Below the pieces are notes generated by a model. The model searched no databases. It was given only the letters and a program-made list of their open reading frames with translations, and had not been told where the DNA came from. From Malacoraja senta (Eukaryota), in assembly GCA_038087875.1 (NCBI GenBank), contig CM075994.1:1-64000 (forward strand): 64,000 nt of DNA, given 5' to 3'. Numbering within the stretch: position 1 is the stretch's first letter; the number at the start of each line of letters is the position of its first letter. The translations under genes were made by a program, and so were the position numbers. Shown piece by piece: positions 5,766 to 54,979 of the stretch.

Positions 5766-5993
5766 GCAGGCTGTTGAAGCTAATTTAATTTTGGCTTCAT
5801 GTTCAGCGTAGACACTGTGGGCTGAAGAGCCTGTTCCTGTGTTGTACTTTTCCATGTTCTACATTCCAACTTTCCTCTCAAAGTATCTGAAAACTTGGTC
5901 TTCCTCTTTTACCACTTGTTGCCCTGCTGCATACTTTCTTGCATCAACTCAAATATTGCATCCCATAAATTGTCCTCTCTCTGTTCTTCACAG

Positions 5994-6128
5994 GCCCCGG
6001 AATTAAATTCACGGGATGAGATTATATACTGCCTTCTCCAGCTTCCTAAGGCCAACAGCCCAGCAACAACAGATGAACAGGACGCAGGCATTGTCTACGC
6101 TGTTCCACAGAAAGTGCAATGCAGGTGA
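5994..6128 (+). CDS. Gene A terminal coding exon with ITIM-consensus motif
   Basis: Strong acceptor tcctctctctgttcttcacAG. Phase 0: APELNSRDEIIYCLLQLPKANSPATTDEQDAGIVYAVPQKVQCR*. IIYCLL fits [ILVS]xYxx[LV]; IVYAVP is a second Tyr motif. CAG|GTGAAG at the stop could alternatively be a donor. Confidence 0.75.
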   Translation, partial: APELNSRDEIIYCLLQLPKANSPATTDEQDAGIVYAVPQKVQCR

Positions 6129-15896: not shown

Positions 15897-17491
15897 AACT
15901 GCTCACAATGCGCCAAGTGCGATCATACTAGCACCTTTTAAAGCCTGAGCATTACATCCTTGTTTTTATATTCTAGTCCTCTCGAAATAAATGCTAACAT
16001 TGCGCTCACTACCGATTGAACTTGCAAATTAACCTTTTGGGAATTCTTCACCAGCACTCCCAAGTCCCTTTGCACCTCCGATTTCTGAATCCAATCCCCA
16101 TTTAGAAAAAAGTCTACGCCTTTATGTCTACCTTTAAAATGCACAACTGCACAATTTGCTACATTGTTTTCCATGAGCCTTCAAGATGAGAGGCTCCGAT
16201 TTCTGCACTCGTACATTGAACAAGGTGCACATTTGAGCAATGGAGAGACAGATATTAGAGAATTGACAGTGCACCTCTCTGATCTGTAGATGTTTCCCTG
16301 TGAATGAGCTATTATGAATGAATACTTTACTGTCACAGGTATGCAAATAGTCGACTGTCAAGGGCGCTTACAAAGTTACAAAGTACACCTTCGCCAGGTC
16401 CCCTCTTGCTCTCCCCCCTCCCCCATGGCAGTCCCCCCACGCCAGCTCCTCCTTTGTTCCGTTCCTCGGCAATGGTGTCCTCACTTCCACGTGGTCCATC
16501 CTCGTCTGTCGGTCAGCGCCATCATCGCCGGCTGCACGGACCTCTCCACTATTGCTGCTGGGTCCTCTCTGGACGTCTCCGTGGCACCGACCCACAGCCG
16601 TTAGCAGGATCTGACAGTACACTTATCGTTCATAAGTGATATGAGCAGAATTGTGCAGGTAGGAACTTCAGATGCTGGTTTACACTGGAGGTAGACGCAA
16701 AATGCTGGAATAACTCAGCGGGACAGGCAGCATCTCTGGAGAGAAGGAATGGGTGAGGTTTCGGGTCTGAAGAAGTGGCTAGACCTGAAACGTCACCCAT
16801 TCGTTTCATCCAGAGATGCTGCCTGTCCCGCTGAGTTACTCCAGCATTTTGTGTCTACCTACACATAATACACACATAGGTACACACGCACGTGGCACGC
16901 ATGCACACAAAACACACATAAGTATGTGCACGGCATGCATGGACACACATAAATACACACACAAGGCGCACACAGATACACATAAAAATACACACACTCA
17001 TCAGTCTGAAGAAGGGTCTCGACCCAAAAATGTCACCCATTCCTTCTCTCCAGAGATATTGCCTGTCCTGCTGAGTTACTTCAGCATTTTGCTTCTATCT
17101 TAAATACACACAGATACAGGTGGGGAATTCCTTCACGTTTCGGGTCGAGACCCATCTTCAGAAGAACTCAATGGCCTGCAATGACCAGTATACCGCTGAG
17201 TTACTCCAGCATTTTGTGTCTATCGTACGAGCAGATTTAGGCCATTCAGCCCAGCAAGTCTACTCTGACATTCAATCAATCATTCCATCTAAACGCCATT
17301 CTCCTGCCTTCTCCCCATAACCCCTGACACGTGTACTAATGAGGAATCTATCTATCTCTGCTTTAGAAAATATCCATTGACATAACATCCACAGTCATCT
17401 GTGGCAATGAATCCCACAGAATCACCACCCTCTGACTGACTCTACACCACCACATACAAGGACACGGTTTTACCAGAGAATGAATACTCAC

Positions 17492-17585
17492 CATGTACCA
17501 ACAGAGCGCTAAACACGAGAACCGCTGTGATCACTAAGATAGCGGCTGGGTATAATCCAACCCGAGCTCTGGGATTGAGCATGAT
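17492..17585 (-). CDS. Gene B stalk plus transmembrane (or GPI-signal) exon with an apparent +1 frameshift
   Basis: ttttgttgtAG ... G|GTGAGT, 94 nt. Phase 1 as written: DHAQSQSSGWIIPSRYLSDHSGSRV* (TAG at 17509-17511). Removing one C of CCC (+ strand GGG at 17548-17550) gives 93 nt, phase 1-1: DHAQSQSSGWIIPAAILVITAVLVFSALLVH. Confidence 0.75.
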
Positions 17586-17787
17586 CTACAACAAAATAAA
17601 TCACCTTTGGTTACATCTTGTAGATATCAATTTAAATGTCCATGATGCAGAGAAGACTTCCCTTTGTATCTATCATGTTTTTGATTCAATTCAATGATTG
17701 AGTGATATTTTATTGTCACGTATCTAGGTATATTAAAGTTCTTTGATTTTGGTGTACAGTCCATAATCACACAGCAGACTTCTCCTC

Positions 17788-18090
17788 GACAGCGGTAGAG
17801 TTGCTGCCTTACAGCGCTGGAGACCCGGGTTCAATCCTGACTACGGGTGCTGTCTGTATGGAGTTTGCACGTTCTCCCCGTGACCTGCGTGGGATTTCTC
17901 CGAGATCTTCTTTCCTCCCACACTCCAAAGGCGTACAGGTATGTAGGTTAATTGGCTTAGTATAAGTGTAAATTGTCCCTAGTGTGTGGAGGATAGTGTT
18001 AATATGCGGGGATCGCTGATTGGTACGGACTCGGTGGGCAGAAGAGCCTGTTTCCATGATGTATCTCTAAACATAACAAAACTAAACCAA
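17788..18090 (+). mobile_element. tRNA-derived V-SINE (HE1-like)
   Basis: CAGCGGTAGAGTTGCTGCCTTACAGCGC..GGGTTCAATCC head, V-domain, tail. Confidence 0.9.
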
Positions 18091-18344
18091 ACGTGGACAA
18101 CCCGAGTCTCGCAGAAAACCTGGGTCTCTGGCGCTGTAAGCGTTGGAAGGCTGCAACTCTAACGCTGCGCTGCCATGCCGCCTTGTTGGACAATTGTTCC
18201 TATCTTGCTTCCCCACGATGCATTCTCTTGGGTTAAATGGATTAAAAACTACTTATCTTCCTTATAATTTTCAAAATTTCCTACATCACGTCTGGAGAGA
18301 TATTTATCCACACAGGGAAAGCAGAATGAGAAATCATGTGAATT

Positions 18345-18800
18345 ATAGGAAATATGTTGTCAAGCTGGAAAGGACTGAAGATTTACAAGGATGTTAACAG
18401 GGGTAGAGGGTCTGAGGTGCAGGGAGAGGGTGTAGGTTGTGACTCTAATCTTTGGAGCAGCAGGATGAAAAAAATCATGAGAGGAATAGAGACTCTTGCT
18501 CAGAGTAAGTGAATCGTGGACCAAAGGACGTAGTTTTAAGGTGTAGGAGAAAAGATTTAAGAGGAATCTGAGTGGTAACTTTTTCACACAAAGGGTGGTG
18601 GGTGTATGGAACAAGCTGCCAGAGGAGGTAGTTGAGGCAGGGACTATCCCAACATTTAAGAGACAGTTGGACAGGTACATGATAGCACAAGTTTGGAGGG
18701 ATATGGACCAAACGTAGGCAGCTGGGACGAGTGTAGCTGGGACAGGTGGCCAAGATGGGCCGAAGGGCCTGTTTCCACACTGTATCACTCTATGACACTA
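18345..18800 (+). mobile_element. CR1 3' fragment (tail shared with the SINE family)
   Basis: FFTQRVVGVWNKLPEEVV. 3' end GGGCCGAAGGGCCTGTTTCC matches the SINE tail. Confidence 0.85.
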
Positions 18801-18985
18801 AGGATAAGATGGTCATCCAATTCAATTAGAATTCAGGGGGATGTTATATGTCTGGAGAGTACTTGGAGTGTAGAGTGACATACGCTGATAAGGACAGATA
18901 ACAAGTGCGGAGAGGGGCTCTTGTGTCGCACAAACATCAACATGGGACAAATGGCCAGCATCTGTGCAATAGACCTTTACAACTT

Positions 18986-19280
18986 GGGTTGCACGATAGC
19001 GCAGTGGTTGAGTTGCTGCCTTACAGTGCCAGAGACCCTGAGTTCAGTCATGACTACGGGTCCTTGTCTGCACGGAGTTTGTATATTCTCCCAGTGACCT
19101 GCGTGGGTTTTCTCCCACACTCCAAAGAAGTGCCGGTTTGTAGGTTAATTGACTTTGGTATAATTGTAAATTGTCCCTCGTGTGTAGGATAGTGTTAGTG
19201 TGCGGGGATGCCTGGTCGGACTCGATGGACAGAAGCACATGTTTCCGTGTTGAATCTCTGTACCTATAAACTAGACTAGA
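18986..19280 (+). mobile_element. tRNA-derived V-SINE (HE1-like)
   Basis: Head, V-domain and tail recognisable. Confidence 0.85.
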
Positions 19281-19354
19281 AGTTAAACACACCAGGGAGA
19301 ACGGAGTGATATCTTATGCTGATAAGGTCAAATAACAAGAGTGGGGAGGAGTTC

Positions 19355-19797
19355 TTTAGTTTTATTTAGTTTGGTTTGGATATACTATGCAGAAACAGGC
19401 TCTTCGGCCCATCGAGTTCGCACCGACCACCGATCCCTGCACATTAACACAATCGTACAGTAGAGATATTTTTTAAAACTTTGATACCAATCCAATCAAC
19501 CTACAAACATGTACATCTTGAGTGTAGGAGGAAATCCTTGCAGGTCACGGGGAGAACGTATAAACTCCGTACAGATGATTAAGGAACGTCTTTCCCGACT
19601 CTCAGTCTGAGGAAGTGTCTCTACCCGAATCGTCAACTATTCCTTTTCTCCAGAGATGCTGTCAGACCCGCTGAGTTACTCCAGCTTTTTGTGTCTATCA
19701 TGTATTATTTAAAACAGCCCGTAGCCAGGATCGAACCTGGGTCTCTGACGCCGTACGAGCTGTGAGGCAGCAACTCTACCACTGCACCACTGTGCCA
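19355..19797 (-). mobile_element. HE1-like SINE split by a Penelope-derived repeat (~19580-19700)
   Basis: Head at 19715-19797; body and tail at 19355-19575. Confidence 0.75.
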
Positions 19798-19860
19798 CTT
19801 CTTGCGTAACATAAACATTGTGGGTCAAATAGACCTTTGCCAATACCGTGACAGACTTAC

Positions 19861-20130
19861 CCTCGATGACCAGCTGGTAGGTGCTGTTGTTTCGATTGAC
19901 TTGGTTTTCCATGCTGCATGTGTAATAGCCAGAGTCTGATTTCTCTGCGTTCCAAATGGTAAATGTTACATTCCCATCAGACAGGGACTGCCGTGGGCTC
20001 ACTGGGAGGACAACTCCTTCTCTGCTCCACAGAATGGAAGTAGCTCTCCCTCTGTGCACCTTGTAGTTCAGCACAGCCGTGTGGTTCTCAGGGTTGTAAT
20101 CACAGGAGATGGATGGTGTGGAGAGAGGAT
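19861..20130 (-). CDS. Gene B Ig C2/I-type domain exon
   Basis: tgttctccAG ... G|GTAAGT, 270 nt, phase 1-1, open: DPLSTPSISCDYNPENHTAVLNYKVHRGRATSILWSREGVVLPVSPRQSLSDGNVTFTIWNAEKSDSGYYTCSMENQVNRNNSTYQLVIE. DSGYYTCxxxN motif and several N-glycosylation sequons. Confidence 0.9.
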
Positions 20131-20664
20131 CTGGAGAACAACAGAATCAATGAGCCAAGACACAAACTCCCTTTTTTAGACCTCAAGTATACAAAGGTAA
20201 ATCCAGATTTATTAAAGGGATCTACAAGAGTCACTGCCTCAAAAATGCAGCCAGCATCATCAGAGACCCATACCACCGTGGCCACGCTCCTTTGCATTTT
20301 GAGGAGGTAGAGGTGTTGGCCTGCTTTCCTGACCATTGCTGTGATATGGGTGGTCCAGGACGAGACACTGGTGATGTTTACTCCTCTGAACCTAAAACGT
20401 TCAACCATCTCTACTTCGACCCCATATTTGCATACTCGGGTATGTGAACCGCTTCCTTTCTGAACTCGTTCACTACCTCCAAGGTTGTTGTCATGTCTCG
20501 AGGTCCTCACCCCCATCTCTCTCACACCCCATTTAGGACTATGCCCTCTAGGTTAGGTGGACACTTCTCAAACATCTCCCACAATATAATGATTCACATT
20601 TCTCACCCACCATCTGCCATCAGCCTGATTATATACCACCAGGTATATAATCAGCTGATAATAC

Positions 20665-21385
20665 CACCAGGGGCGCTGCATGATTGGCAGCCTCACAAAA
20701 AGTTTGTCTGTCTTTTCGTCAATTTTGTGTTATTTTTAGTGTGTTTTAAAGTTTGTGTAAATGTTCTCCGGTTTGTTTTATGGGTGGGGGAGGGGGTCCG
20801 GGGAAATTGTTTTTCAGTCTCTTACCTTGCCGGAGATGCGACTGTTTTCCGGGTCGTATCTCCGGTTGCTCTGCGGCCTAACATCGTGGAGCTGGAGGCC
20901 TTGCTCGGGACTGACTTTGAGCCCTACCACGGGGCATGGACTCACCATCGGAGCCTACGGACTTTAACATCAAGGACTCGCAGTCTGGGGAGAGACCGAG
21001 TCAGGAGCTCCAATGACGCAGAAAGTTCGTCAGACCCGACCCGGGGTCCGATCGCTTGGCGCGGGGGAGCTGATATCCCCCCCGATACAGGTGCTGGATC
21101 GCCCCGACGAGGAAGGCCTGCCGCCGGCTACGGGAGTAAGATCGTCCCGTCAACAGAAGGCTCGAGGCTCCCAACCACGGGAGAACAAAGAAGGGAAGAG
21201 ATTGAACTTTTTTTTTCGCCTTCCATCGCAGTGAGGAATGTGGAGGAGTCACTGTGGTGGATGTTTATGTTAAAATGTATTTTGTGTGTTCTGTTGCTTT
21301 TTATTTGTACGACTGACTCGGCAAATGAAATTCCTCGTATGCTGTAAAACATACTTGGCTAATAAAGTATTATTGTATTGTATAT
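20665..21385 (+). mobile_element. Non-coding retroelement with Rex1-type tail (copy 2)
   Basis: Starts caccaggggcgctgcatgattggcagcctcac and ends catacttggctaataaagtattattgtattgtat. Confidence 0.6.
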
Positions 21386-22189
21386 TCTTTTCATGTCTAT
21401 TAATTACATTCCATTGAGTCGATCTACACCACGTTGCCTCGGCAAGGCCACCAGCATCTTCAAAGACGAGGCTAATCCTTGACACTCCTTCTCACATCAG
21501 AAATGATACACAGAATTGTGAAACACCTATCTCCAGATTCAGGGACAGTTTCTTCCCAGCTGTTATCAAGCAACTGAACCATCCTATCACCACCGAGAGT
21601 GGTCCTGAGCTACCATATACCTCATTGGAGAGCCACAGAATGTATTTATTCAGACTTTACTAGACATTATCTTGCACTAAACGTTATTTCATTTATCCTG
21701 TAAGTGTACACTGCAGACAGCTTGATTGTAATCATGTATAGTCTTTTGGCTGACTGGATAGCATGCAACAAAAAGCTTTTCACTGTACCTCGGTACATAT
21801 GACAATAAACTAAACAAAAGTAAATTAAACTTCCCAGATCAATGCTTCTAGGTTTGCTCATTTTCTGATTATATGGATTACATCATATAAACTTAAATCC
21901 CAATTATTTAAATGTGTTCAAGAAAATAGTAATCCTAGCAGGTTAGTCATCTAAAATTGGAGAATACATTAGCTTGTAAGATCCTGTCAAGTCCAATAAT
22001 CAACCGTTCACGATGCCACTTGGGTATCTTAGAACCCAATAGTATGAACATTAGATTCTCCAATTTCAAATAATAACCCCCATACCTACCTTCCCCTTCC
22101 CTGTGACACACCCCTCCCCTCACCCTTGTCATGCCCATTTTACTCACTAACTTCCATCCTCCCAGTCACCGTAATCTCCTCGCTGACAC

Positions 22190-22985
22190 CCCATATCCCT
22201 CCAAACCTGTCCCATCCATGTACCTGTCTAATTGTTTCTTAAATGTTGCAATAGTCCCAGCCTAAACTACTTCCTCTGGAATATCGTTCCATACCCCTAC
22301 CAGCCTTTGTGTGAAAAAGTCACCCCTCAGACTTCTATTAAATCTTTCCCCCTTCACTTTAAACCCAGTCCCTATTCCCCCACTTTGGGCAAGAGACTCT
22401 GTGTCCACCCAATCTACTCATCTCATGATTTTATACACCTCCATAAGATCACCCCTCCTCCTGTACTCCAAGGAATAGAGTTCCAGCCTGCTAAACCTCT
22501 CCCTATAGCTCATATCCTCGAGTCTTGGCAACATTCTCATACAACCTCTCTGTACTCTTTCCAACTTGACAACATCTTTCCTGTAACATGGTGCCCAGAA
22601 CTGAACACAATAGTCTAAAATGCAGCCTCACCAATGCAACTGCAGCATGACCTCCCAACTTCTATACTCAATACTCTGACTGATGAAGGACAATGTGCCA
22701 AAAGCCTTTTTGACCACCTTATCTATCTGTGACTCCACCTTCAATGAACCATGTACCTGCTCTCCTTGACCTCTCTGCTCTACAATACTCTCCAGAGCCC
22801 TACCATTCACTGTGTAGGTCCTGCCCATGTTAGACTTTCCAAAATGCTTCAATTCACATTTCTCTGTTAAATTCCATCAACAATTCCTCAGCCCACCTGG
22901 CCAACCGATCAAGATTCTGTTGCCATTTTTGACATCCGTCTTCACTATCTGCAAAACCACCCACCTTTGTATCCTCCACAAACTT
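22190..22985 (-). mobile_element. CR1 RT/3' fragment
   Basis: HFGKSNMGRTYTVNG..QIDKVVKKAFGTL. Confidence 0.85.
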
Positions 22986-23274
22986 GTAAAGTCTATTCAC
23001 TTATTTAGCTTAACAAAATTTATACAAAGACCTGTGGATATGGCTGCCTTCAATATGTGTATAATGCATAAATAGTGGAGACCATCTTAAAGATAAAATC
23101 CTTAGTTCAGAGTAATTTAGTGACCTTTTCAAAAAGAAAATCCTCACCTGCGCTTTCTACCATGGAGTAGAAAAAATCAAATCGATATTGCAGATAGACA
23201 TAAGTGACTCAGCGGGTCAGACAGCATCTCTATCTGGATGCATCACAGCTTGATTTGGGATCAGCTACCTGAGG

Positions 23275-23748
23275 AACGCATGCAAATTGTGGACGCAGCC
23301 CAGACCATCACACAAACCAACCTCCCTTCCATTGACCACATTTATAAATCATGCTGCCTCAGCAAGGCCAGCAGCATAATCAAAGATGAATCGCACCTTG
23401 GCCACTACCTCTTCTCCTCTCGGGGAAAAAGGTACAGAAGTGTGAAAACGCACACCTCCAGATTCAGGGACAGTTTCTACCCAACTGTTATCAGGCAACT
23501 GAATCATCCTACCACAACAAGAGAGCAGTGCTGAACTACTATCTACCTCGTGGTGACCCTCGGACTAGCTCTGATTGGATTTTACGGACTTTACCTTACA
23601 CTAAACATTATTCCCTTATCATGTATCTGTACACTGTGGATGGCTGGATTGTAATTATGTATTGTCTTTCCACTGACTGGTTAGCACGCAACAAAAGCTT
23701 TTCACTGTACCTCAGTACATATGACGATAAACTAAACTGAACTGAACT
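23275..23748 (+). mobile_element. Rex1/Babar 3' fragment
   Basis: AQTITQTNLPSI..KRYRSVKTHTSRFRDSF; (ACTGA)n tail. Related copy at ~21410-21815. Confidence 0.8.
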
Positions 23749-23903
23749 GGATGCTGAGTTGGTGTGAGAAAAGAGGGCAAATTTGAGAGTGGGAATGCGT
23801 GGTGAGGAGAAAGCAAGGCATACCCACAGATATTTGGGATCAAGCACAAATATTTATTACATTTTGTTTTGTTGTCACCTGCAACATTGCTTCAGATCAG
23901 GAA

Positions 23904-24192
23904 GGGCGGTACGGTGGCGCAGCGGTAGAGCTGCTGCCTTACTGCGCCAGAGACCCGGGTTTGATCTTGACTGTGGGTGCTTGTTCTCCCCATGACCTGC
24001 GTGGGTTTTCTCAGAGATCTTTGGTTTCCTCCCACATACCAGAGACGTACAGGATTATATGTGATTTGTTTTGGCGTAAATGTAAAATTGTCCCCAGTGT
24101 GTGCAGGGTAATGTTAATGGGATCACTGGTCAGTGTGGACTCGGTGGGTCAAAGTGCCTGTTTCTATGATGTATCTCTGAACTAAACTCAAC
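23904..24192 (+). mobile_element. tRNA-derived V-SINE (HE1-like)
   Basis: GGTACGGTGGCGCAGCGGTAGAG..GGGTTTGATC head and tail. Confidence 0.85.
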
Positions 24193-24310
24193 TTACAGTA
24201 ATTGAGCTTCAAGGCAATTAATACAGGTTAAGAAATCATGCTTGGAAAATGTCGACTCAGCACACTGTCACCATTTCATTTAAATAATTACAAACCCTCT
24301 GGCTACTTAC

Positions 24311-24610
24311 CAATGACTTCAAGAGTTAGAATTCTGGTCCTCTGTGAGTCTAAGTCCACTGTCATTTTATAGTGGCCACTGTCTGCTTTACCAACATCTT
24401 TTAATTGAAAGGATCCATCTGAACTGTTAACTTTAATTCGATTCTCGTAGTTTACAAATGCGATGATATTTCCTTCATGCACATTGGTAATGATGAGAGT
24501 CCTGCTGGAATCTGAGAAGTCCCAGTGGACATTTTTGAATTCCTTATCAGTTCCGGGGAATGGAATAGAGGAGCCTGTGGCAGCCAGCTTGCTGTCTCTT
24601 GTCCACTGAG
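24311..24610 (-). CDS. Gene B Ig V-set domain exon (no cysteines)
   Basis: tgtcttgtAG ... G|GTAAGT, 300 nt, phase 1-1, open: AQWTRDSKLAATGSSIPFPGTDKEFKNVHWDFSDSSRTLIITNVHEGNIIAFVNYENRIKVNSSDGSFQLKDVGKADSGHYKMTVDLDSQRTRILTLEVI. Has C-strand W, R..., GSFQL, DSGxY and LxV motifs. Missed by the ORF track. Confidence 0.9.
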
Positions 24611-24695
24611 CTACAAGACAAATGAATTAATTCAAACAGTATCACACCTGAGATAAGTAGGAAGGAACTGCAGATGCTGGTTTAAACCGAAGATT

Positions 24696-24893
24696 GACAC
24701 AAAAAGCTGGAGTAACTCAGCGAGTCAGACCGCATCCCTGGAGAAAAGGAATAGGTGACATTTCGGGTTGAGACCCTTCTTCAGACTCCTGAAGACTCCA
24801 GAGTCTGAAGAAGGGTCTTGAACCGAAACGTCACCTGTTCCTTTTCCCCAGAGATGCAGTCTGAGCCGTTGAGTTACTCCAGGTTTTTGTGCC
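24696..24893. repeat. Penelope-derived fold-back element with back-to-back hammerhead motifs
   Basis: ~90-nt inverted arms around ctgaagactcca. + arm contains CTGAAGAAGGGTCTTGAACCGAAACGTC (24805-24832). Confidence 0.8.
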
Positions 24894-25727
24894 ACATCTG
24901 AGATAGATGAACACACACACGTAGATGTTCAGTGTTTACCTTAGCTACCAGACAGTACTAACAGTAAAGAAAGTGTATAGTATGCTTCCACATTGCTTGG
25001 GGCATTGAGTATAAGAGTCATGAAGTCAGGTTGCAGCTTTATAAAACCATTGTTAGGCCACATTTGGAGTATTGCATGCAGTTCAAGTCGCACCTTGTAC
25101 AGGAAGATTATGGAGGTTTTCGAGGGAGTGCAGAAGAGATTTACCACAATGTTGCCTGGATTACAGTGTTTTACCTATCAGACGAGATTGGACAAACTTG
25201 GATTATTTTCTATGGTGCGTCAGAGGCTTATGAGAGACTTGATTGAAGTATTTAAAATAGTGAGAGGCATTGATAGGGTAGACAGTCAGAACCTTTTCCC
25301 ACAGGGTGGAAATGTCAAAGACCAGAGGACATCGCTTTAAGGTGAGGGGGGAACAACGTTTAAAAGAGATTTGGGGGGCATGGGTTTTGAAAAACATCCT
25401 CTCCCTCAGGGTTAACAAGGAAATGGAGCTAGTTATTGACTTCAGGAAGTACCTGCCCAATCAGCTACAAGTCAATGAATTAATTTAAACAGTATCACAC
25501 CTGAGATATGTAGGAAGTAACTGCAGATGCTGGTCAGCGAGTCCGACAGCATCTCTTGAGAAATGGATTAGGTGACATTTCGGGTCGAGACCCTTCTTCA
25601 GACTCCTGAAGACTCGAGTCGGAAGGAGGGTTTCGGCCTGAAACGTCACCTATTCCTGAATACATGCCCAATCAGCATCAATGGTGCTGAAGTGGAAATG
25701 GTTGAAACTTCATCTTCCTGGGTGTAA

Positions 25728-26000
25728 AGGGCAGCAGGATGGCACAGTGGTAGATTTGCTGCCTTACAGTGCCAGAGACCCTGTACGATCCTGACTATGG
25801 ATGCTGTCTGTACGGCGCTTGTACATTCTCCCCATGGGTTTTCTCCAAGAACTTCAGTTTCCCCTCACACTCCAAAGACTTACAGGTTTGTAGGTTAATT
25901 GGCTTGGTATAAATGTAAATTGTCCCTAGTTTGTGTCGGAAAGTGTTAATGCGAGGGGATCGCTGGTCGTGCTGTATCTCTAAACTAAACTAAAACTAAA
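25728..26000 (+). mobile_element. tRNA-derived V-SINE (HE1-like)
   Basis: Head, V-domain and (CTAAA)n tail. Confidence 0.85.
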
Positions 26001-26069
26001 AATCTCCACCAATTTTTCCTGGACTAACCAATCACATTGAAGATTGTAGATGTTGATTAAAATGAAAAT

Positions 26070-27652
26070 TAACCGGGAAGTGGTGTTAGGTAAATTGAAT
26101 GGATTAAAGGCCAATAAATCCCCAGGGCCAGATAGGCTGCATCCCAGAGTACTTAAGGAAGTAGCCCCAGAAATAGTGGATGCATTAGTGATAATTTTTC
26201 AGAACTCCTTAGATTCTGGAGTAGTTCCTGAGGATTGGAGGGTAGCAAACGTAACCCCACTTTTTAAAAAGGGAGGGAGAGAGAAAACGGGGAATTACAG
26301 ACCAGTTAGTTTAACATCGGTAGTGGGGAAACTGCTAGAGTCAGTTATTAAAGATGGGATAGCAGCACATTTGGAAAGTGGTGAAATCATTGGACAAAGT
26401 CAGCATGGATTTATGAAAGGTAAATCATGTCTGACGAATCTTCTAGAATTTTTCGAGGATGTAACTAGTAGAGTGGATAGGGGAGAACCAGTGGATGTGT
26501 TATATCTGGACTTTCAGAAGGCTTTCGACAAGGTCCCACATAAGAGATTAGTATACAAACTCAAAGCACACGTTTTGGGGGTTCAGTATTGATGTGGATA
26601 GAGATCTGGCTGGTAAACAGGAAGCAAAGAGTAGGAGTAAACAGGTCCTTTTCAGAATGGCAGGCAGTGACTAGTGGGGTACCGCAAGGCTCAGTGCTGG
26701 GACCCCATGTATTTGCAATATATATTAATGATTTGGACGAGGGAATTGAATGCAACATCTCCAAGTTTGCGGATGACATGAAGCTGGGGGGCAGTGTTAT
26801 CTGTGAAGAGGATGCTAGGAGGCTGCAAGGTGACTTGGATAGGCTGGGCGAGTGGGCAAATGCATGGGAGATGCAGTATAATGTGGATAAATGTGAGGTT
26901 ATCCACTTTGGGGGCAAAAACAGGAAAGGAGACTATTATCTAAATGGTGGCCGATTAGGAAAAGGAGAGATGCAACGAGACCTGGGTGTCATGGTACACC
27001 AGTCATTGAAAGTAGGCATGCAGGTGCAGCAGGAAGTGAAGTATAGGAGCAGGGAGGTTCTACTGCAGTTGTACAGGGTCTTGGTGAGACCAAACCTGGA
27101 GTATTGCGTACAGTTTTGGTCTCCAAATCTGAGGAAAGACATTCTTGCCATAGAGGGAGTACAGAGAAGGTTCACCAGACTGATTCCTGGGATGTCAGGA
27201 CTTTCATATGAAGAAAGACTGGATAGACTCGGCTTGTACTCACTAGAATTTAGAAGATTGAGGGGGGATCTTATAGAAACTTACAAAATTCTTAAGGGGT
27301 TGGACAGGCTAGATGCAGAAAGATTGTTCCCGATGTTGGGGAAGTCCAGGACAAGGGGTCACAGTTTAAGGATAAAGGGGAAATCCTTTAGGACCGAGAT
27401 GAGAAAAACATTTTTCACACAGAGAGTGGTGAATCTCTGGAACTTTCTGCCACAGAAGGTAGTTGAGGCCAGTTCATTGGCTATATTTAAGAGGGAGTTA
27501 GATGTGGCCCTTGTGGCTAAGGGATCAGGGGGTATGGAGAGAAGGCAGGTACAGGATACTGAGTTGGATGATCAGCCATGATCATATTGAATGGCGGTGC
27601 AGGCTCGAAGGGCCGAATGGCCTACTCCTGCACCTATTTTCTAAGTTTCTAT
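26070..27652 (+). mobile_element. 5'-truncated CR1 LINE (RT domain to tail)
   Basis: [39 protein letters not shown] motifs. Frameshift near 26580 and an internal deletion. Near-identical to 51960-53596. Confidence 0.95.
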
Positions 27653-28104
27653 GAAAATGAAAGTTGAAGATGGAAGAACAAAGTAGCACATCACCTCCAC
27701 TTCTTCAAGAGACAAAGGACAAGTTCAGTATATCTCCAATAACTCTTATCAAGTCTACAGATGCACAGTAGAAAGCATACTATCAGGTAATAAATTAGTC
27801 ATCGGCAGCTGAGGGAATACCTCATAGAAGTTGGTAAAATTGTGAAAGGCATACAGTGCCCTGCATAATGTTTGGGACAAAGTCACATCATTTATTTATT
27901 TGCCTCTATACTTCACAATTTGAGATTGGTAATAGAAAAATCACATGTGGTTAAAGTGCATATTGTCAGATTTTAATAAAGGCCATTTTTATACATTTTG
28001 GTTTCAACATGTAGAAATTACAGCAGTGTTTATACATAGTCCCCCCCATTTCAGGGCACCATAATGTTTGGTACACAGCAATGCAGGGCTCTCACTTAAC
28101 TTTT

Positions 28105-28376
28105 TTTCCTTCTTTCTTTCTCTTTTTTTTTCTAGGGTCTATTTTCTAACTTTACTTCCTTCTCTAACTTCTTTTCTAAGGGGCTTTCTTTTCCCAACAC
28201 TCTTTTGCACTTCACAACCTTTGTGCACTTTCTTCACTTTTCTTACTTCTTTCTTTTTCTTTCTTAAAGTTTAAAAAAGTGAAGCGGTACAAAAAATGTA
28301 TTAATATATACGTGTTGTACATTACTGTAATCTACCGTACTTCTAAAAAAAATTAAAAAAAAAAAAAAAAAAAAAA
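28105..28376 (+). mobile_element. L1 3'UTR with poly(A)
   Basis: T-rich UTR similar to 13190-13440 and 45860-46212. Long A tail. aacttttttt duplicated on both sides. Confidence 0.75.
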
Positions 28377-28724
28377 CTTTTTTTCCCTGTTGCCAGTCGG
28401 GCAACCTCGGCAGGTTGTTAGGTTGTCAAATTACAGTTTAGGTGGTCATTTAAGACGGCTTGCATGATGCGTGCAATAATGTGCTCGGACGAAGTGCGTT
28501 ACCAGTCGGAATTATGGTCAATGAAGCATTCACATATTATTTCTGCTTCAAATAAATTCACAAACTAAACGTATTCACCTATCAAGACATGATCTATACC
28601 ACAATGACATGCAGCAAAATTACAATACAGTATCTCATCTCTTTTTACACGTGCAATGAATGCAATTTCTATTATTTCTTTCCACTTCCAAATAAAAATC
28701 TGTTTGGATTATTCAGCGCATGAT

Positions 28725-29150
28725 CAACCTCGGTGATTGCTTCGCCCAACACCTCCAATCAGTTCGCCATAACTAACCTGATCTCCTGGTGGCTCAGCAC
28801 TTCAACTCCCCCTCCCATTCCGAATCCGACCTTTCTGTCCTGGTCCTCCTCCATTGCCAGAGTGACGCCCACCATAAATTGGAGAAGCAGCGCCTCATAT
28901 TTCGCTTGGGCAGCTTACACCCCAGCGGTATGAACCTCCAATTTCAAGTAGTCCCTGCATTCTCCTCCGCTTCCCAGCTCTCCCTCAGCCCACTGTCTCC
29001 GCCTCTTCCTTTCTTCTTCCCGCTCGCTCCCCCCCCCCTCGCCTCACCTCACATCAGTCTGAAAAAGGGTCTCGACCCTAAACGTCACCTATTTTCTTCG
29101 CTCCATAGATGCTGCCTCACCCGCTGAGTTTCTCCAGCATTTTTGTCTCC
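28725..29150 (+). mobile_element. Penelope 3' fragment (GIY-YIG C-terminus plus terminal repeat)
   Basis: AQHFNSPSHSESDLSVL..KLEKQRLIFRLGSLHPSGMN. Confidence 0.85.
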
Positions 29151-32100
29151 CCATTCACACAAGTTCTGTTATCCCACTTTCCTCACCCACTCCCTACACA
29201 TTAGGGGCAATTTTACAGAGACAAGTTAACCTACAAAGCCAATGCGTCTTTGGGATGTGGGAGGAAACCCACACGCTTGCAGGGAGAATGTACAAATTCA
29301 ACACAGACAGTGCCCGAGGACAGGATCGACCACAGATCTCTGGCGTGTGAGGCAGCAAGTCCACCAGCTGTGCCACTATATTTTATTTTCCAACACACAA
29401 AAAATTATACGTTGATAACTTTGGTTACTAAAAAAAAGAAGCTATACATTTTCAGTTTTAAATATCGAAGTGACGCTATGTCCCCCTTTACAGCTACTAT
29501 ATGTTTTAATTCAGTTCAAGGCTATGCAGCAGTACATTGGCCATAAAGTTGCTGCCTAAAATTGCCAGAGACCCGGAATTGATCCTGAATATGGGTGCTG
29601 TCCATCTGGAGTTTGCTCCTTTTCCCTTTGATCGCATGGGTTTTCTCCGGGTGCTCTTGTTTCCTTCCACATTCCAAAGGTGTGCAGGAACCTTTTTCAG
29701 ACCCAACCCAAAACGTAATATTTTCTGTTTGTCCAGAGATTCTGTCTGACCTGTTGATTTACTCCAGCTTTTTGTGTCAATCTTCAGTTTAAACCAGCAT
29801 CTGCAGTTCCTTCCTACATACACGATACTATTCGATAGAACTTTATTAATCCCAGGAGGGAAATTGTGTGTGTGTGTGTATATATATATATATTATACCC
29901 ACACACACACATGTATATATACTTATATAGTTACATATTCATATATAAGTACTATGTTTACATATTCTGTTGTGCTGCTGATAGTAAGGATTCCGTTGTT
30001 CTAACTGGGACACGAGAGAATAAAACTCTTGACTTATGTTGGTAATGTGTGGGATAGAACTAGTGTACGGGTGGTCGGCGCGGACTCGGTGGGCCGAAGG
30101 GCCTGTTTCCACGCTATATCTTTAAATTAAACTAAAAACACTAACACCAGAGGAAATCTAAAGAAGGGTCTCTACCCGAAACGTCACCCAATTTCTTCTA
30201 TCCAGAGATGCTGGCTGCTCCATGGAGATCCCCCGCACAATTAAAGCATGGAATAGTCTTCACCCTACCATAGTCACCCAACCAGACGCAACTAAATTTA
30301 ATGTCGCTCTTGTTTCCCCCAAGAACCCTTTTTTGCTTTAGTCCAAGTCAAGAGTCAAGAGAGTTTTGTTGTCATGTATCCCAGATAGGACAATGAAATT
30401 CTTGCTTGCTGCAGCACAACAGAATATGTAAACATAATACAGAACAGGAGATAAAAGTTCAGTGTGTCTATATACCATAGACCATATATATACACAATAA
30501 ATAAACAGATAAAGTGCAATAGGCTGTTATTTTTCAGTGTTTGGAGTTTGGTGGTGGTGGGTCCATGACAGTTTAAATTCCATTTGGAATATATTTGGAT
30601 AACGAGGAAACCAAGAAGCAAGAGTTACTCCAGGGAGTTACTCCAGCTCCAGGGAGTGATTCTGCGTTGGTTTTCAGCGGTTGTGGCGAGGCGGCAACCG
30701 GACAGCAATGGTGGCCAGATCTCCCACAATGCAAAGGGAGGGAGAAAGTGCCCGACGCCGACCAGTTGCCGTGGCAGTGCGCATGTGCAGGGCGGCACAT
30801 GCGCACAACCACGGTCGATGATGTGCTGGCCGTGGTTGTGCGCATGTGCAGGGGAGGATGTGCAGGCCGTGGCAGTGTGCATGTGCAAGGCGGCCGGCCG
30901 TGCCGGCGGATGAGAAGCGAGCAGAGAGCGGACACCCGGACAGGGATACGGTTGGCGTGCGGAGACGGAGAGTGACAGACAAGAGAGATAGTGAGGGGGG
31001 CCTGCTCAGAATTAAACAATAGGTGTCCCGCGTGCTTGCCAAGCCGGGCAATATTACACGAGTTTTAGGTTGCCCGGCGGGACGTTTGGTCGCCATTGGC
31101 ACCTGGGCAACTGCTAATTTCGAGCCCTGCAATGCCATGTAAATGAAAGTAGTCATGTTCAGTATTTTGTTGCATACCCTTTGCATGCAATGACTGCTTG
31201 AAGTCTGTGATTCATGGACATCACCAGTTGCTGGGTCTCTTCTCTGCTGATGCTCTGTCAGGCCTGTATTGCAGCCATCTTCAGCTTATGCTTGTTTTGG
31301 GGGCTTGTCCCCTTCAGCATATAACAGACATGCTTAATTGGGTTCAGATCGAATGATTGACTTGGCCACTCAAGAATTGACCATATTTTAGCTTTGAAGT
31401 ACTCCTTTGATGCTTTAACAGCATATTTGGGATCATTGTCTTGCTGCAGAATGAACCGCTGGCCAATGAGGTTTGAGGCATTTGTTTGAACATGAGCAGA
31501 TAGGATGTGTGTATACACTTCAGAATTCATTATGCTACTACCATCAGCAGTTGCATCATCAATGAAGATAAGTGAGCCAGTACCTAAGCAGCCATACATG
31601 CCCTGGCCATAACACCCCCGCCTCTGTGTTTCACAGATGAGGTGGTATGCTTTGGATCTTGGGCAGTTCCTTCTCTCCTCCATACTTTGTTCTTGCCATT
31701 ACTCTGATATAGTCTTCGTCTCAAATGAATCTTCATCTCATTTGTCCACAAGACCTTTTTCCAGAATTGTGGTTGCTCTTTTCAGTACTTCTTAGCAAAC
31801 TGTAACCTGGTCATCCTATTTTTGCGGAAAACCAGTGGTTTGCTTCTTGCAGTGTAGCCTCTGTATTTCTGTTCATGAAGTCTTCTGCGCTGTGGCTATT
31901 AACAAATCCACACCTGACTCCTGAAGAGTGTTTCTGATCTATCGGAGAGGGGTTTGGGGATTTTTCTTTAATAGAGAGAATTCTTCTGTCATCTGCTGTG
32001 GAGGTCTTCCTTGGCCTGCCAGCCCCATGTGATTAGTAAGCTCACCAGTGCTCGCTTTCTTCTTAATGATGTTCCAAACCATGGATTTTGGGAAGCCTAA

Positions 32101-32596
32101 GGTTTGGCTGATGTCTCTGACAGTTTTATTCTTGTTTCTCAGTCTCATAATGGCTTCTTTGACTTTCATTGACACAACTTTGGTCCTCATGTTGATAAAC
32201 AGCAATAAATGTTTCCAAAGGTGATGGAAAGACTGGAGGAAAGACTAGGTGCTGAGAGCTCTCTTGCACCTGCATTAAGGAGGCATTTGAACACACCTGA
32301 GCTATTACAAACACCTGTGAAACCATGTGTCCCAAACATTATGCTGCCCTGTAATGGGGGGACTATGTATAAACACAGCTGTAATTTCTACATGGTGAAA
32401 GCAAAATGTATTAAAAAACCTTTTAATAAAATCTGATAATGTGCACTTTAACCACGTGATTTTTTTCTATTACAAATCTCAAATTGTAGAGTACAGATGC
32501 AAATAAATAAATGATGGGTCTTTGTCCCAAATATTATGGAGGAAACTGTAAGTAGACAGACAGAACCTTTATTCCTAGGGTGCAAATGTCAAAGAC

Positions 32597-33203
32597 GAGT
32601 AAACATGACTGGTCCAGTAACGCTGAGGCCCTGTACAAGAAGGGACAGAGCCGGCTGTACTTTTTGAGAAGTCTCTGCTCCTTCAATGTCTGCACTAACA
32701 TGCTGCAGATGTTATACAAATTGGTGGTGGCCAGTGCCATCTTTTTTGTTGCCATATGCTGGGTCAGCAGGGCAAAGGCCACGGACACCAACAGGTTTAA
32801 CAAGCTCATCAGGAAGGCTGGCTCCATCCTGGGCATGGAGGTGGATTCATGGGATGAGGTCTTGGAGGGAAGGATGGTCCTCAAACTGTGGAGCATCTTG
32901 GACAATACAGCTCATCCTCTCCATGACACACTGGGCAACCTGAGGAGCACCTTCAGCAACAGACAGGTTCCACCAAGATACAGTACAGAATGCCACAGGA
33001 GATCCTTCTTTCCTGTGGCTATCAAACTGTACAACTCTTCCCCCTTCTGTCGTGAGCTAGACTGACTCTCCTCCCACCCCCAATCTTTCCACATCCCCAA
33101 TCCTTTCCACTTCACCTTAATTTCATGTTTCATGTATCTTGTGTTTTATGACTGTTGGCAGATCAATTTCCCTCCTGGGATAAATAAAGATCTATCGTAT
33201 CGC
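32597..33203 (+). mobile_element. Rex1/Babar 3' fragment
   Basis: KKGQSRLYFLRSL...RRSFFPVAIKLYNSS; (ATCGT)n tail. Confidence 0.85.
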
Positions 33204-33438
33204 AGAGGACTGAGTGTGAAGGGCAGATGGGGAAAGTTTCACGAAGAAAGGATTAGTTTAATTTGGGATCATGTTTGACACAGACATCAGGTCCTAACAT
33301 CAAGGACCTGTTCCTATGCTCTATTGTTCAATTTAGAATTATATTTCTGCAAATGCATTTTCTTTTTTTCCCAACTTGAACATTCTTGAGCCAGATTGCA
33401 GTCACCGCCTGCTTACAGAGACTCAGAAGTAATTTTAC

Positions 33439-33499
33439 CTGAAACTCTGTTGCTGAGAAGTTGCAGAAGGCAGAGGATAGAACAGCCGAAGGTCATCAT
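33439..33499 (-). CDS. Gene B signal-peptide exon (coding part; exon with 5'UTR spans 33439-33580)
   Basis: ATG at 33499: MMTFGCSILCLLQLLSNRVS plus G|GTAAAA (phase 1), joining the V exon as Ala. Upstream acceptor ctccttttccttctctcAG at 33581-33582. In-frame TGA upstream of the ATG. Confidence 0.8.
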
Positions 33500-33954
33500 T
33501 ATGTAGAGGAGCTGGTGCTATCAGCTTATTCAAATAACGGAATAGGGTCACGAAGGTAGCCTGGTAACTTCATCTGAGAACTGAGAGAAGGAAAAGGAGC
33601 AATATATCATACATAGCACACATTATAATTTATATTTAGATGAGAGGAACTCAGAGGGTCGGGCATATGTGGAGGGAGTGGGGAGATGATGTTTTGAGTG
33701 GGACTGTTTTATTGATGAGGGCAGTGTTGCTGATATGATTTACACGTGCTTCTGCAAGGCCTTCAACAAGGACCCACACACGGAAGACTGGTTGAAAAGA
33801 TATAGAGCCCTTAAGATACGGCAAGTCGTCATTTTCAATCAAAATACTAGTGCGGTAAAGGAGACAAAGGATAAAGGTGGTGATGCAAGAACTACATCTC
33901 CATCTGCAACAACTGCATCTGAACAAAACCATGCTGACTATCCCTAATCAGCCC

Positions 33955-41516: not shown

Positions 41517-42583
41517 ACATAGAAACATAGAAACATAGAAAGTAGGTGCAGGAGTAGGCCATTCGGCCCTTCGAGCCAGCACCGCCATTCAATATGATCA
41601 TGGCTGATCATCCAAACCAGTATCCTGTACCTGCCTTCTCTCCATACCCCATGATCCCTTTAGCCACAAGGGCCACATCTAACTCCCTCTTAAATATAGC
41701 CAATGAACTGGCCTCAACTACCTTCTGTGGCAGAGGATTCCACAGATTCACCACTCTCTGTGTGAAAAATGTTTTTGTCATCTCGGTCCTAAAAGATTTC
41801 CCCCTTATCCTTAAACTGTGACCCCTTGTTCTGGACTTCCCCAACATCGGGAACAATCTTCCTGCATCTAGCCTGTCCAACCCCTTAAGAATTTTGTAAG
41901 TTTCTATAAGATCCCCCCTCAATCTTCTAAATTCTAGCGAGTACAAGCCGAGTCTATCCAGTCTTTCTTCATATGAACGTCCTGACATCCCAGGAATCAG
42001 TCTGGTGAACCTTCTCTGTACTCCCTCTATGGCCAGAATGTCTTTCCTCAGATTTGGAGACCAAAACTGTACGCAATACTCCAGGTGTGGTCTCACCAAG
42101 ACCCTGTACAACTGCAGTAGAACCTCCCTGCTCCTATACACAAATCCTTTTGCTATGAATGCTAACATACCATTCGCTTTCTTCACTGCCTGCTGCACCT
42201 GCATGCCTACTTTCAATGACTGGTGTACCATGACATCCAGGTCTCGTTGCATCTCCCCTTTTCCTAATCGTCCACCATTCAGATAATAGTCTACTTTCCT
42301 GTTTTTGCCACCAAAGTGGATAACCTCACATTTATCCACATTATACTGCATCTGCCATGCATTTGCCCACTCACCCGGCCTATGCAAGTCACCTAGCAGC
42401 CTCCTTCCATCCTACTCACAGCTAACACTGCCCCCCAGCTTCGTGTCATCCGCAAACTTGGAGATGTTGTATTCAATTCCCTCGTCCAAATCATTAATAT
42501 ATATTGTAAATAGCTGGGGTCCCAGCACTGAGCCTTGCGGTACCCCACTAGTCACTGCCTGCCATTCTGAAAAGGACCCGTTT
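41517..42583 (-). mobile_element. 5'-truncated CR1 LINE
   Basis: [28 protein letters not shown] motifs; (TTCTATGT)n tail. Same young subfamily as 26070 and 50385. Confidence 0.95.
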
Positions 42584-50384: not shown

Positions 50385-53300
50385 TTTCTAGGGCATTGGA
50401 ACCAGTTCTGTGGGAGGTGGGACCAGTACAAACAGGATGGTCTGCACCTGGGCTGGAATGGAACCAATATCCTTGGGGTGGTGTTTGCTAGTGCTGTCGG
50501 GGAGGATTTAAACTAATGTGGCAGGGGGAATGGGAGCATGAGCAGAGAGACAGAGGGGTGTAAAATGAGGGTAGAAGCAATAGGTAGCAAGGTGAAAAGT
50601 AAAAGTGGCAGGCAGAAAAATCCAGGGCAAAAATCAACAAGGGCCACTTTTCAACATAATTGTATAAGAGGTAAGAGTGTTGTAAAAACAAGCCAGAAGG
50701 CTTTGTGTCTCAATGCAAGGAGCATTCGTAATAAGGTGGATGAGTTGAATGTGCAGATAGTTATTAATGAATATGATATAGTTGGGATCACGGAGACATG
50801 GCTCCAGGGTGACCAAGGCTGGGAGCTGAACATCCAGGGATATTCAATATTCATGAGGGATAGACAGAAAGGAAAAGGAGGTGGGGTAGCAATGCTGGTT
50901 AGAGAGGAGATTAACGCAGTGGAAAGGAAGGACATTAGCTTGGAGGATGTAGAATCGGTATGGGTAGAGCTGCGAAACACTAAGGGGCAGAAAACGCTGG
51001 TGGGTGTTGTGTACAGGCCACCTAGAAGTAGTAGCGAAGTTGGGGATGGCATCAAACAGGAAATTAGAAATGCGTGCAACAAAGGCAAAACAGTTATAAT
51101 GGGTGACTTCAATCTACATATAGATTGGCTGAATCAAATTGGCAGGGGTGCTGAGGAAGAGGATTTCTTGGAATGTATGCGGGATAGTTATCTAAACCAA
51201 CATGTGGAGGAACCAACGAGAGAGCAGGCTATTCTAGACTGGGTATTAATGAGGAAGGGTTAGTTAGCAGTCTTGTTGTGCGTGCCCCCTTGGGCAAGAG
51301 TGACCATAATATGGTTGAGTTCTTCATTAGGATGGAGAGTGACATTGTTAATTCAGAAACAATGGTTCTGAACTTAAAGAAAGGTAACTTTGAGGGTATG
51401 AGACGTGAATTCGCCAAGATTGACTGGCAATTAGTTCTAAAAGGGTTGACGGTGGATATGCAATGGAAGGCATTTAAAGATTGCATGGATGAGCTACAAA
51501 AATTGTTCATCCCAGTTTGGCAAAAGAATAAATCAGGGAAGGTAGTGCATCCGTGGATAACAAGGGAAATCAGGGATAGTATCAAAGCAAAACATGATGC
51601 GTACAAATTAGCCAGAAAAAGCAGCATACCAGAGGACTGGGAGAAATTTGGAGATCGGCAGAGGAGGACAAAGGGCTTAATTAGGAAAGGGAAAATAGAT
51701 TATGAAAGAAAACTGTCAGGGAACATAAAAACTGACTGCAAAAGTTTTTATAGATATGTGAAGAGAAAGAGATTAGTTAAAACAAATGTAGGTCCCTTGC
51801 AGTCAGAAACAGGTGAATTGATCATGGGGAACAAGGATATGGCGGACCAATTGAATAACTACTTTGGTTCCGTCTTCACTAAGGAAGACATAAATAATCT
51901 GCCGGAAATAGCAGGGGACCGTGGGTCAATGGAGATGGAGGAACTGAGTGAAATCCAGGTTAGTCGGGAAGTGGTGTTGGGTAAATTGAATGGATTAAAG
52001 GCCGATAAATCACCAGGGCCAGATAGGCTGCATCCCAGAGTACGTAAGGAAGTAGCTCCAGAAATAGTGGATGCATTAGTGATAATTTTTCAAAACTCTT
52101 TAGATTCTGGAGTAGTTCCTGAGGATTGGAGGGTAGCAAACGTAACCCCACTTTTTAAGAAGGGAGGGAGAGAGAAAACGGGGAATTACAGACCAGTTAG
52201 TCTAACATCGGTAGTGGGGAAACTGCTAGAGTCAGTTATTAAAGATGGGATAGCAGCACATTTGGAAAGTGGTGAAATCATTGGACAAAGTCAGCATGGA
52301 TTTACGAAAGGTAAATCATGTCTGACGAATCTTATAGAATTTTTCGAGGATGTAACTAGTAGAATGGATAGGGGAGAACCAGTGGATGTGTTGTATCTGG
52401 ACTTTCAGAAGGATTTCGACAAGGTCCCACATAAGAGATTAATATACAAACTTAAAGCACACGGTATTGGGGGTGCAGTATTGATGTGGATAGAGAACTG
52501 GCTGGCAAACAGGAAGCAAAGAGTAGGAGTAAACGGGTCCTTTTCACAATGGCAGGCAGTGACTAGTGGGGTACCGCAAGGCTCAGTGCTGGGACCCCAG
52601 CTATTTACAATTTATATTAATGAACTGGATGAGGGAATTGAAGGCAACATCTCCAAGTTTGCGGATGACACTAAGCTGAGGGGCAGTGTTAGCTGTGAGG
52701 AGGATGCTAGGAGACTGCAAGGTGACTTGGATAGGCTGGGTGAGTGGGCAAATGTTTGGCAGATGCAGTATAATGTGGATAAATGTGAGGTTATCCACTT
52801 TGGTGGCAAAAACAGGAAAGCAGACTATTATCTAAATGGTGGCCGATTAGGAAAAGGGGAGATGCAGCGAGACCTGGGTGTCATGGTACACCAGTCATTG
52901 AAAGTAGGCATGCAGATGCAGCAGGCAGTGAAGAAAGCAAATGGTATGTTAGCTTTCATAGCAAAAGGATGAGTATAGGAGCAGGGAGGTTCTACTGCAG
53001 TTGTACAGGGTCTTGGTGAGACCACACCTGGAGTATTGCATACAGTTTTGGTCTCCAAATCTGAGGAAGGACATTATAGCCATAGAGGGAGTGCAGAGAA
53101 GGTTCACCAGACTGATTCCTGGGATGTCAGGACTTTCATATGAAGAAAGACTGGATAGACTTGGCTTATACTCGCTAGAATTTAGGAGATTGAGAGGGGA
53201 TCTTATAGAAACGTATAAAATTCTTATGGGGTTGGACAGGCTAGATGCAGGAAGATTGTTCCCGATGTTGGGGAAGTCCAGGACAAGGGGTCACAGCTTA

Positions 53301-53596
53301 AGGATAAGGGGGAAATCCTTTAAGACCGAGATGAGGAAAAACTTTTTCACACAAAGAGTGGTGAATCTCTGGAACTCTCTGCCACAGAGGGTAGTTGAGG
53401 CCAGTTCATTGGCTATTTTTAAGAGGGAGTTAGATGTGGCCCTTGTGGCTAAAGGGATCAAGGGGTATGGAGAGAAGGCAGGTACGGGATACTGAGTTAG
53501 ATGATCAGCCATGATCATATTTAATGGCGGTGCAGGCTCGAAGGGCTGAATGGCCTACTCCTGCACCTATTTTCTATGTTTCTATGTTTCTATGTT
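50385..53596 (+). mobile_element. CR1 LINE: ORF1 C-terminus (esterase-like) plus near-complete ORF2 (APE endonuclease and RT) with two frameshifts
   Basis: ORF1 FLGHWNQF..DGLHL. ORF2 [45 protein letters not shown] across ORFs 50538-51263, 51278-52972 and 53001-53495. (TTCTATGT)n tail. Confidence 0.97.
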
Positions 53597-54946: not shown

Positions 54947-54979
54947 CCATGTTACTGATGCACAGAAAGTTAAATACAA

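Follow-up and report, generated by a model that had tools for sequence, protein, structure and literature searches.

Gene structure at the locus

The first 64,000 nucleotides (nt) of contig CM075994.1 of the skate Malacoraja senta (assembly GCA_038087875.1), referred to here in full as the window, contain on the minus strand a four-exon gene of the immunoglobulin (Ig) type with a Cys-less V domain, which is a real but damaged paralog of an elasmobranch gene family. Its exons are spread over 16 kb, and the membrane anchor has been lost. The first coding exon (33439..33580) follows an acceptor at 33580 and carries a signal peptide from the ATG at 33499 (MMTFGCSILCLLQLLSNRVS), its coding part (33499-33439, 61 nt from the ATG) ending at a phase-1 donor. 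The V-type exon (24311..24610, 300 nt) retains an Arg78/Asp97 pair and lacks any Cys throughout the V domain (residues 22-120), with residues 43-76 being the most divergent among paralogs. The second Ig exon, which is C2/I-like (19861..20130, 270 nt), bears the motif LPVSPR..LS.GN.T.T characteristic of CEACAM A domains, and the stalk/transmembrane (TM) exon (17492..17585, 94 nt) preserves its TM sequence intact in another frame. All four exons are preceded by AG and followed by GT, and exons 1-3, joined in phase 1, yield an open frame of 210 amino acids (aa) comprising signal, V and C2 portions.

In Pfam, exon 3 scored above the cut-offs for Ig_3 and I-set (expectation value (E) 2.5e-8), exon 2 reached V-set at E 0.007, below the cut-off, and a C2-set match was absent for the window exons. 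A profile of the family matched all four exons, the next of the 2626 six-frame segments of the window scoring E 0.05. Exon 1 is 68-78% identical to its counterparts in P0001, P0002, P0003 and P0017, and the TM sequence of exon 4 is 59-75% identical to that of relatives. An earlier note, made from the letters of this DNA, had described four canonically spliced exons encoding a CD2/SLAM-like receptor with a Cys-less V and a C2 domain. The exon positions, strand, GT-AG ends and the phase-1 junctions of exons 1-3 stand, as does the Cys-less V exon, while the junction of exon 4 lies out of the TM frame; the Ig profile check proposed there bears out exon 3 and falls short for exon 2, and the second domain is an Ig domain of the I-set/Ig_3 kind with a Tyr at its B-strand Cys position.

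Lesions in the window copy

Exon 4 is 2 nt shorter than in relatives, and the shortfall is placed at 17579/17580 (minus strand) because rajid relatives read D/G-H-E-L/P-N-P-R there. It shifts the frame at the third codon of the exon and does not lie in a homopolymer. With exon 4 joined at its canonical acceptor, translation runs outside the TM frame into a premature TAG (17509..17511, minus strand), which lies 17 nt ahead of the donor of this exon, so the TM helix remains unread. In addition, the B-strand Cys of domain 2, present in 16 of 18 family members, is replaced by Tyr143 (TAC, 20063..20065, minus strand), which means that the canonical B-F disulfide cannot form. Both lesions escaped the earlier note, and an intact receptor is not supported for this copy.

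Related changes occur elsewhere in the family. The B-strand Cys is also absent from P0001 (Tyr) and P0004 (Trp), the window copy and P0001 having a Tyr-Lys pair in common, and the skate models P0001, P0008 and P0009 likewise leave the family frame near the anchor. A skate clade lacking this Cys (the window copy, P0001 and P0004; support 95/81) dissolved once columns 142-144 were dropped. Relative to its relatives, the window copy has 12 private residues, eight of which lie within residues 58-83.

The lesion sites were also inspected in sequencing runs, of which 4 of the 23 listed were aligned to 17400-20300, a stretch swamped by repeats. Contigs with two more letters behind 17579 account for 4.4 of a depth of 19.2 in run X1 (two contigs) and for 28.9 of 138.1 in X2 (one contig). 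The X2 remainder at 17579 (109) agrees with the depth of the main exon-3 contig of that run (108.7), and the short form of exon 4 is therefore probably real outside this assembly, commoner in X2 and present in several copies. Two points weigh against this use of the runs: contigs without the two extra letters were counted by depth difference only, which makes bridging of 17579 likely rather than proven, and X1 and X2 are unlike the window in exon 3. The B-strand Cys codon stands at full depth in X1, X2 and X17, so these runs lack this exact copy. In X17, a 972-nt contig aligns to 19859-20131 only and matches the exon 3 borders within 2 nt; our guess is that X17 is RNA. The joint between exons 3 and 4 was not among the 15 joints listed (2893 further exist), and the two upstream joints fall outside the aligned stretch. 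One X2 contig lacks 1 nt at 17498, at about the place where P0001 leaves the family frame, and a second anchor-exon lesion therefore occurs in other copies.

The elasmobranch family

A search with exon 3 retrieved 13 proteins that are 69-91% identical to it; 12 are RefSeq models from six skates and rays. A profile search added sawfish, electric ray and shark models to give 25 in all. The view that the gene is unannotated is not supported: models exist in six batoid species, with further genera reached by profile, under pipeline names as varied as CD48-, CEACAM-, PSG-, HEPACAM-, A33- and JAM-A-like. What the earlier note said of a poorly characterised chondrichthyan member is borne out, in that the locus is a rajid skate Ig gene with a Cys-less V and C2 plan, and no paper on this family or on chondrichthyan CD2/SLAM was found in a search outside which most subscription journals lay. 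The skate and ray models XP_032903599-609 (Amblyraja radiata), XP_055486335-339 and XP_055521130-132 (Leucoraja erinacea), and XP_078272491-497 (Rhinoraja longicauda) share the exon plan of the window copy and are 74-81% identical to it in V, rising to 82-92% in domain 2. They differ from the window copy in that it alone has its 12 private residues and that it carries the frameshift before the TM segment together with Tyr143. Family splicing is shown in relatives, because a 32-member cluster that includes L. erinacea RefSeq proteins contains, among its 15 listed members, ten of 249-250 aa derived from contigs of 929-1445 nt, compared with an exon span of 16 kb in the window.

Intact members consist of a signal peptide, a Cys-less V domain, a C2/I domain and one hydrophobic segment followed by a short tail. 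The single hydrophobic segment is found in all 28 family proteins examined, with tails of 0-70 aa that fall under 20 aa in 18 of them. None of the 28 has an immunoreceptor tyrosine-based switch motif (ITSM) or activation motif (ITAM), and one has a loose match to the inhibitory motif (ITIM). The ITSM (TxYxxV/I) marks the tails of signalling SLAM receptors, and CD48 and CD58 are without it. To judge from these sequences, the family appears designed for a ligand or adhesion role and not for that of a signalling co-receptor, so that a co-receptor reading of this gene is not supported. All 18 members compared have R78 and D97, and the window copy has both. Several models (P0011, P0013, P0029 and P0038-P0041, from stingray, little skate and sawshark) contain either between two and four V domains in tandem or V+C2 units that are repeated, which may reflect real exon duplication or merged neighbouring genes.

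Variation across eight rajiform sequences is concentrated in residues 43-76, with 1.24 extra states per column compared with 0.49 in the rest of V and 0.38 in C2, a concentration reached by none of 10,000 shuffles in their best window. In the structure model these residues form the C, C' and C'' strands, and passages of PMC5990624 and PMC11969063 describe CD2 and CD58 as binding through that face of the V domain. Such variation offers a hint of selection rather than a test of it. Against reading more into it counts the fact that the edge strands are more variable in many V domains anyway.

Start region and surrounding sequence

An upstream ATG at 33573 directly follows the exon 1 acceptor (CAG ATG AAG) and opens a 15-codon open reading frame (ORF; 33573-33500, minus strand) out of frame with the signal peptide. 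Family proteins begin with M-K-T-F in other batoids and with M-M/I-T-F in rajids, and a comparison of these starts suggests that an insertion may have split the old start codon in rajids.

Searches of the window with tblastn, blastn and two family profiles found no extra exon or paralog, and a multi-TM profile, built from the kin described below, found no further exon. For exon 5, which in relatives encodes an AWTAFLN tail, every AG below 17490 was scored against the peptide and a DNA pattern allowing 3 mismatches was applied; neither located it, and it may sit beyond the window. A Tyr-containing ORF at +5826-6128 was considered as a tail and ruled out, since it lies on the opposite strand and matches no Pfam family. 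The segment 5759-6225 is not repeated within the window, has a possible minus-strand acceptor near 6158 and matches neither Pfam nor the family; it may represent a 3' untranslated exon.

Sequence that recurs inside the window makes up at least 44% of it, and 12 other ORFs carry transposon domains or match nothing. Young copies of long interspersed nuclear elements (LINEs) lie at 51188-53495 (+), 26050-27581 (+) and 41608-42411 (-), the first with a 594-aa open frame containing a reverse transcriptase domain. Fragments of a hAT transposase (56418-57298, +), a Tc1/Sleeping Beauty-like transposase (31258-32244, -) and an endonuclease (54974-55558, +) are also present, the Tc1-like fragment being located inside the first intron of the Ig gene.

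A multi-TM group as nearest kin

The closest relatives found for the family are V+C2 proteins, their V likewise of the Cys-less type, with four to five hydrophobic segments, as opposed to the single one of the skate family. With the best single V+C2 unit, family members scored 356-445 bits, the multi-TM group 118-165 bits and seven CEACAMs 53-88 bits, and none of 145 library representatives outside these three sets and close chondrichthyan fragments exceeded 88 bits; the list of representatives starts at a whole-protein score of 113 bits, below which short SLAM or HEPACAM proteins could not appear. The profiles of the family and the multi-TM group align with probability 100 and E 1.8e-50 (hhalign). 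Members of the group include Callorhinchus XP_007908103, Hemitrygon XP_072889177, Rhea XP_062440625, chicken LOC422295 and turtle LOC101942090, and the group ranges from chimaera, sharks and rays to turtles and birds; mammals, teleosts and amphibians were not named among the 76 matches listed (8000 candidates scored). No paper on LOC422295 or on the group was found.

A Cys in domain 2 (DCG) occurs in 19 of 19 multi-TM proteins, compared with none of the 27 single-TM proteins that have the motif, which read DSG in the family. The multi-TM group also has an invariant Cys before its last helix, and five long helices in a structure model. In P0144, P0180, P0195, P0229, P0239 and their kin, the extra domain 2 Cys and the Cys before the last helix occur together, a pattern that suggests a putative long-range disulfide on a CD47-like plan. 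A CD47 Pfam match was found in none of six multi-TM proteins, and CD47 was not among the listed fold matches, which scarcely covered the TM part.

In seven of the nine species with both types observed, single- and multi-TM genes lie on a chromosome-scale contig of equal length, the two misses being short scaffolds; this denotes the same chromosome and not adjacency. In an unrooted tree of 48 rows with long branches, a branch supported at 96/96 sets seven CEACAM rows apart, and another at 91/89 has the single-TM family as one side. The single-TM family may be either nested in the multi-TM group or sister to it: nesting is suggested by the bootstraps, in only 4% of which the multi-TM group forms one side, while monophyly of that group is not rejected (approximately unbiased test, p 0.23). 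P0121 from Heptranchias, a divergent single-TM V+C2 protein scoring 180 bits, is encoded on the same contig as family and multi-TM genes; its branch is long and its place uncertain.

Fate of the window copy

The window locus belongs, as one of the paralogs, to a skate gene family that is small and expanding. The account we lean towards, by a modest margin over an even chance, is that it is a recently disabled duplicate, in keeping with birth-and-death evolution. By the normal splicing of the family, the copy would be unable to make an anchored protein, and any product would be a soluble V+C2 protein with a presumably unstable second domain. Several observations weigh against this account. The 630 nt of exons 1-3 form an uninterrupted frame and no splice site departs from the canonical form, so that decay can be at most very recent; the TM segment could be restored through either of two in-frame AG sites further down exon 4 (17566 and 17545); and for three skates the annotation includes isoforms that omit exon 4 and with it the TM segment (P0015, P0016 and P0030), which means that a soluble product may be normal in the family.

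A less probable alternative, still to be taken seriously, is that the copy is functional, either as a secreted V+C2 protein of about 235 aa that ends in 24 hydrophilic residues and acts as a decoy or soluble ligand, or through re-anchoring via a downstream acceptor. The open exons and the exon-4-skipping isoforms of relatives are consistent with it, as is the position of the stop 17 nt from the exon 4 end, stops so near an exon end usually escaping nonsense-mediated decay if only one exon follows. It also draws on the eight of 12 private residues that fall at the binding edge (residues 58-83) and on the short form, seemingly the deeper one in X1 and X2. Loss of the B-F disulfide argues against function, and re-anchoring would remove the stalk and rely on acceptors whose pyrimidine tracts are no better (0.59 and 0.53, compared with 0.59). 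It is improbable that the 2-nt gap is an assembly error, in which case the gene would encode an anchored protein whose second domain, like those of P0001 and P0004, is non-canonical. The presence of only one frame lesion, the good preservation of the TM sequence (59-75% identity) and the occurrence of the intact form in X1 and X2 would fit such an error; the site outside any homopolymer, and the absence of the extra letters from roughly four fifths of the depth that two other runs have at 17579, argue against it.

Identity of the family

On identity, we give roughly an even chance to the family being a lineage of its own together with the V+C2+4-5TM group described above, and representing neither the shark CEACAM locus nor an established CD2/SLAM ortholog. 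The absence of CD2/SLAM and HEPACAM rows from the tree weighs against this placement. A doubtful but appreciable alternative assigns the family and its multi-TM kin to the CD2/SLAM branch with a CD48/CD58-like ligand role. A V-only profile built from 13 sequences and compared with the PDB ranks CD48 (E 1.3e-7, the best single domain), a CD48/CD2 chimera (2.8e-7), CD58 (1.2e-3) and CD2 (0.04) before mouse CEACAM1 (0.065), JAML standing above CD48 only through the summing of two domains. Foldseek, applied to a model of the intact relative P0017 (predicted local distance difference score, pLDDT, 85), places CD48/CD2, CEACAM1, CD58 and CD2 at ranks 1-4, and the multi-TM kin folds put CD58 (Z 15.1) and CD48 (Z 14.9) ahead of CEACAM1 (Z 13.7). 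The tail-less design and the Atlas clusters that are SLAM-like (Ly9- and SLAMF5-like, 0.95-0.96) point the same way. Set against these, a HEPACAM-like Atlas cluster scores 0.95 as well; the folds of CEACAM1 (Z 14.6), CD48 (14.6) and CD58 (14.4) tie within 1 Z for P0017, and nectin-1 and JAML score no lower; and domain 2 is far nearer CEACAM A domains, scoring as I-set/Ig_3 and matching C2-set or SLAM at E 0.01 in none of 18 members. Receptor_2B4 gives weak matches in eight of 18 members (best E 5e-4). The hallmark invoked in the earlier note, a Cys-less V followed by C2, is present and its V is nearest CD48; domain 2 is nearest CEACAM A domains, the folds tie and the nearest relatives found are the multi-TM group, so that CD2/SLAM membership is a candidate reading and no more.

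It is unlikely that the family is a divergent CEACAM branch, even though the best PDB sequence matches of domain 2 are CEACAM5, 1 and 6, with which it has the LPVSPR..LS.GN.T.T motif in common, and the Cys-less V contains an invariant Arg/Asp pair. Passages of PMC3628338 and PMC4079198 report a CEACAM expressed sequence tag from little skate, which may or may not belong to this family. The V domain is nearer CD48, and separate, multi-domain shark CEACAM5-like genes, with only 75-88 bits, occupy other contigs in both species checked: in Stegostoma, the family member P0088 is on a contig of 31,945,831 nt and the CEACAM5-like gene on one of 19,005,769 nt, and in Rhincodon the multi-TM kin are on a contig of 25,067,188 nt and the CEACAM5-like gene on one of 9,681,543 nt. 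Equally unlikely, as a bolder extension of the separate-lineage reading, is an ancient jawed-vertebrate Ig lineage apart from CD2/SLAM and CEACAM, in which V+C2 would at first have been set on a disulfide-tied five-helix bundle of CD47-like plan, and which would persist in chondrichthyans, turtles and birds; the elasmobranch single-anchor ligands would be derived from it, their binding face diversifying under pathogen or self-recognition pressure, and skate copies, the window locus among them, would repeatedly have turned into soluble decoys.

Significance

As a single gene and a damaged paralog of pipeline-annotated models, the window locus has little to say on lymphocyte co-receptors. The wider interest lies in a family whose V domain is CD48-like and whose domain 2 is CEACAM-like, beside an unnamed multi-pass Ig group reaching birds. 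Should the separate lineage prove true, it would be a third one to include in work on the origins of CD2/SLAM and CEACAM, with chicken LOC422295 as a workable model. Automatic names such as 'CD48-like', 'CEACAM-like' and 'HEPACAM-like' in shark genomes cover one family and are not to be taken as orthology.

Comparison with known systems

HEPACAM has a cytoplasmic tail of over 100 residues, and the skate family differs from it in having tails of at most 70 aa. With CD48 and CD58, the family shares a Cys-less V that is nearest in sequence, a two-domain fold at Z 14.3-14.6 and little or no tail; its domain 2 differs in being longer and I-set/CEACAM-like, at 15-24% identity. According to passages of PMC5990624, CD58 occurs in TM and glycosylphosphatidylinositol (GPI) forms, and the N-terminal V domain of CD2/SLAM proteins is without a disulfide, as is the Cys-less V of the window copy. 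The B-F disulfide of the CD2/SLAM C2 domain, by contrast, is lost in the window copy and kept in 16 of 18 family members.

The likeness to CEACAM1, 5 and 6 comprises the A-domain motif, the best domain-2 scores and the Arg-Asp pair, which in a passage of PMC4079198 is described as stabilising the CEACAM N domain. The two invariant Cys that the same source ascribes to the CEACAM IgC domain are found in 16 of 18 relatives and not in the window copy, where Tyr143 takes the place of one. GPI-linked and secreted members and lineage-specific expansion, as described for CEACAMs in parts of PMC4079198 and PMC3628338, provide a further likeness to the skate family, which differs from CEACAM1, 5 and 6 in having neither A-B repeats nor ITIM/ITAM. 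From sequence and structure models, the family would seem to work like CD48/CD58 or like an anchor-only CEACAM, with membership of either group not established.

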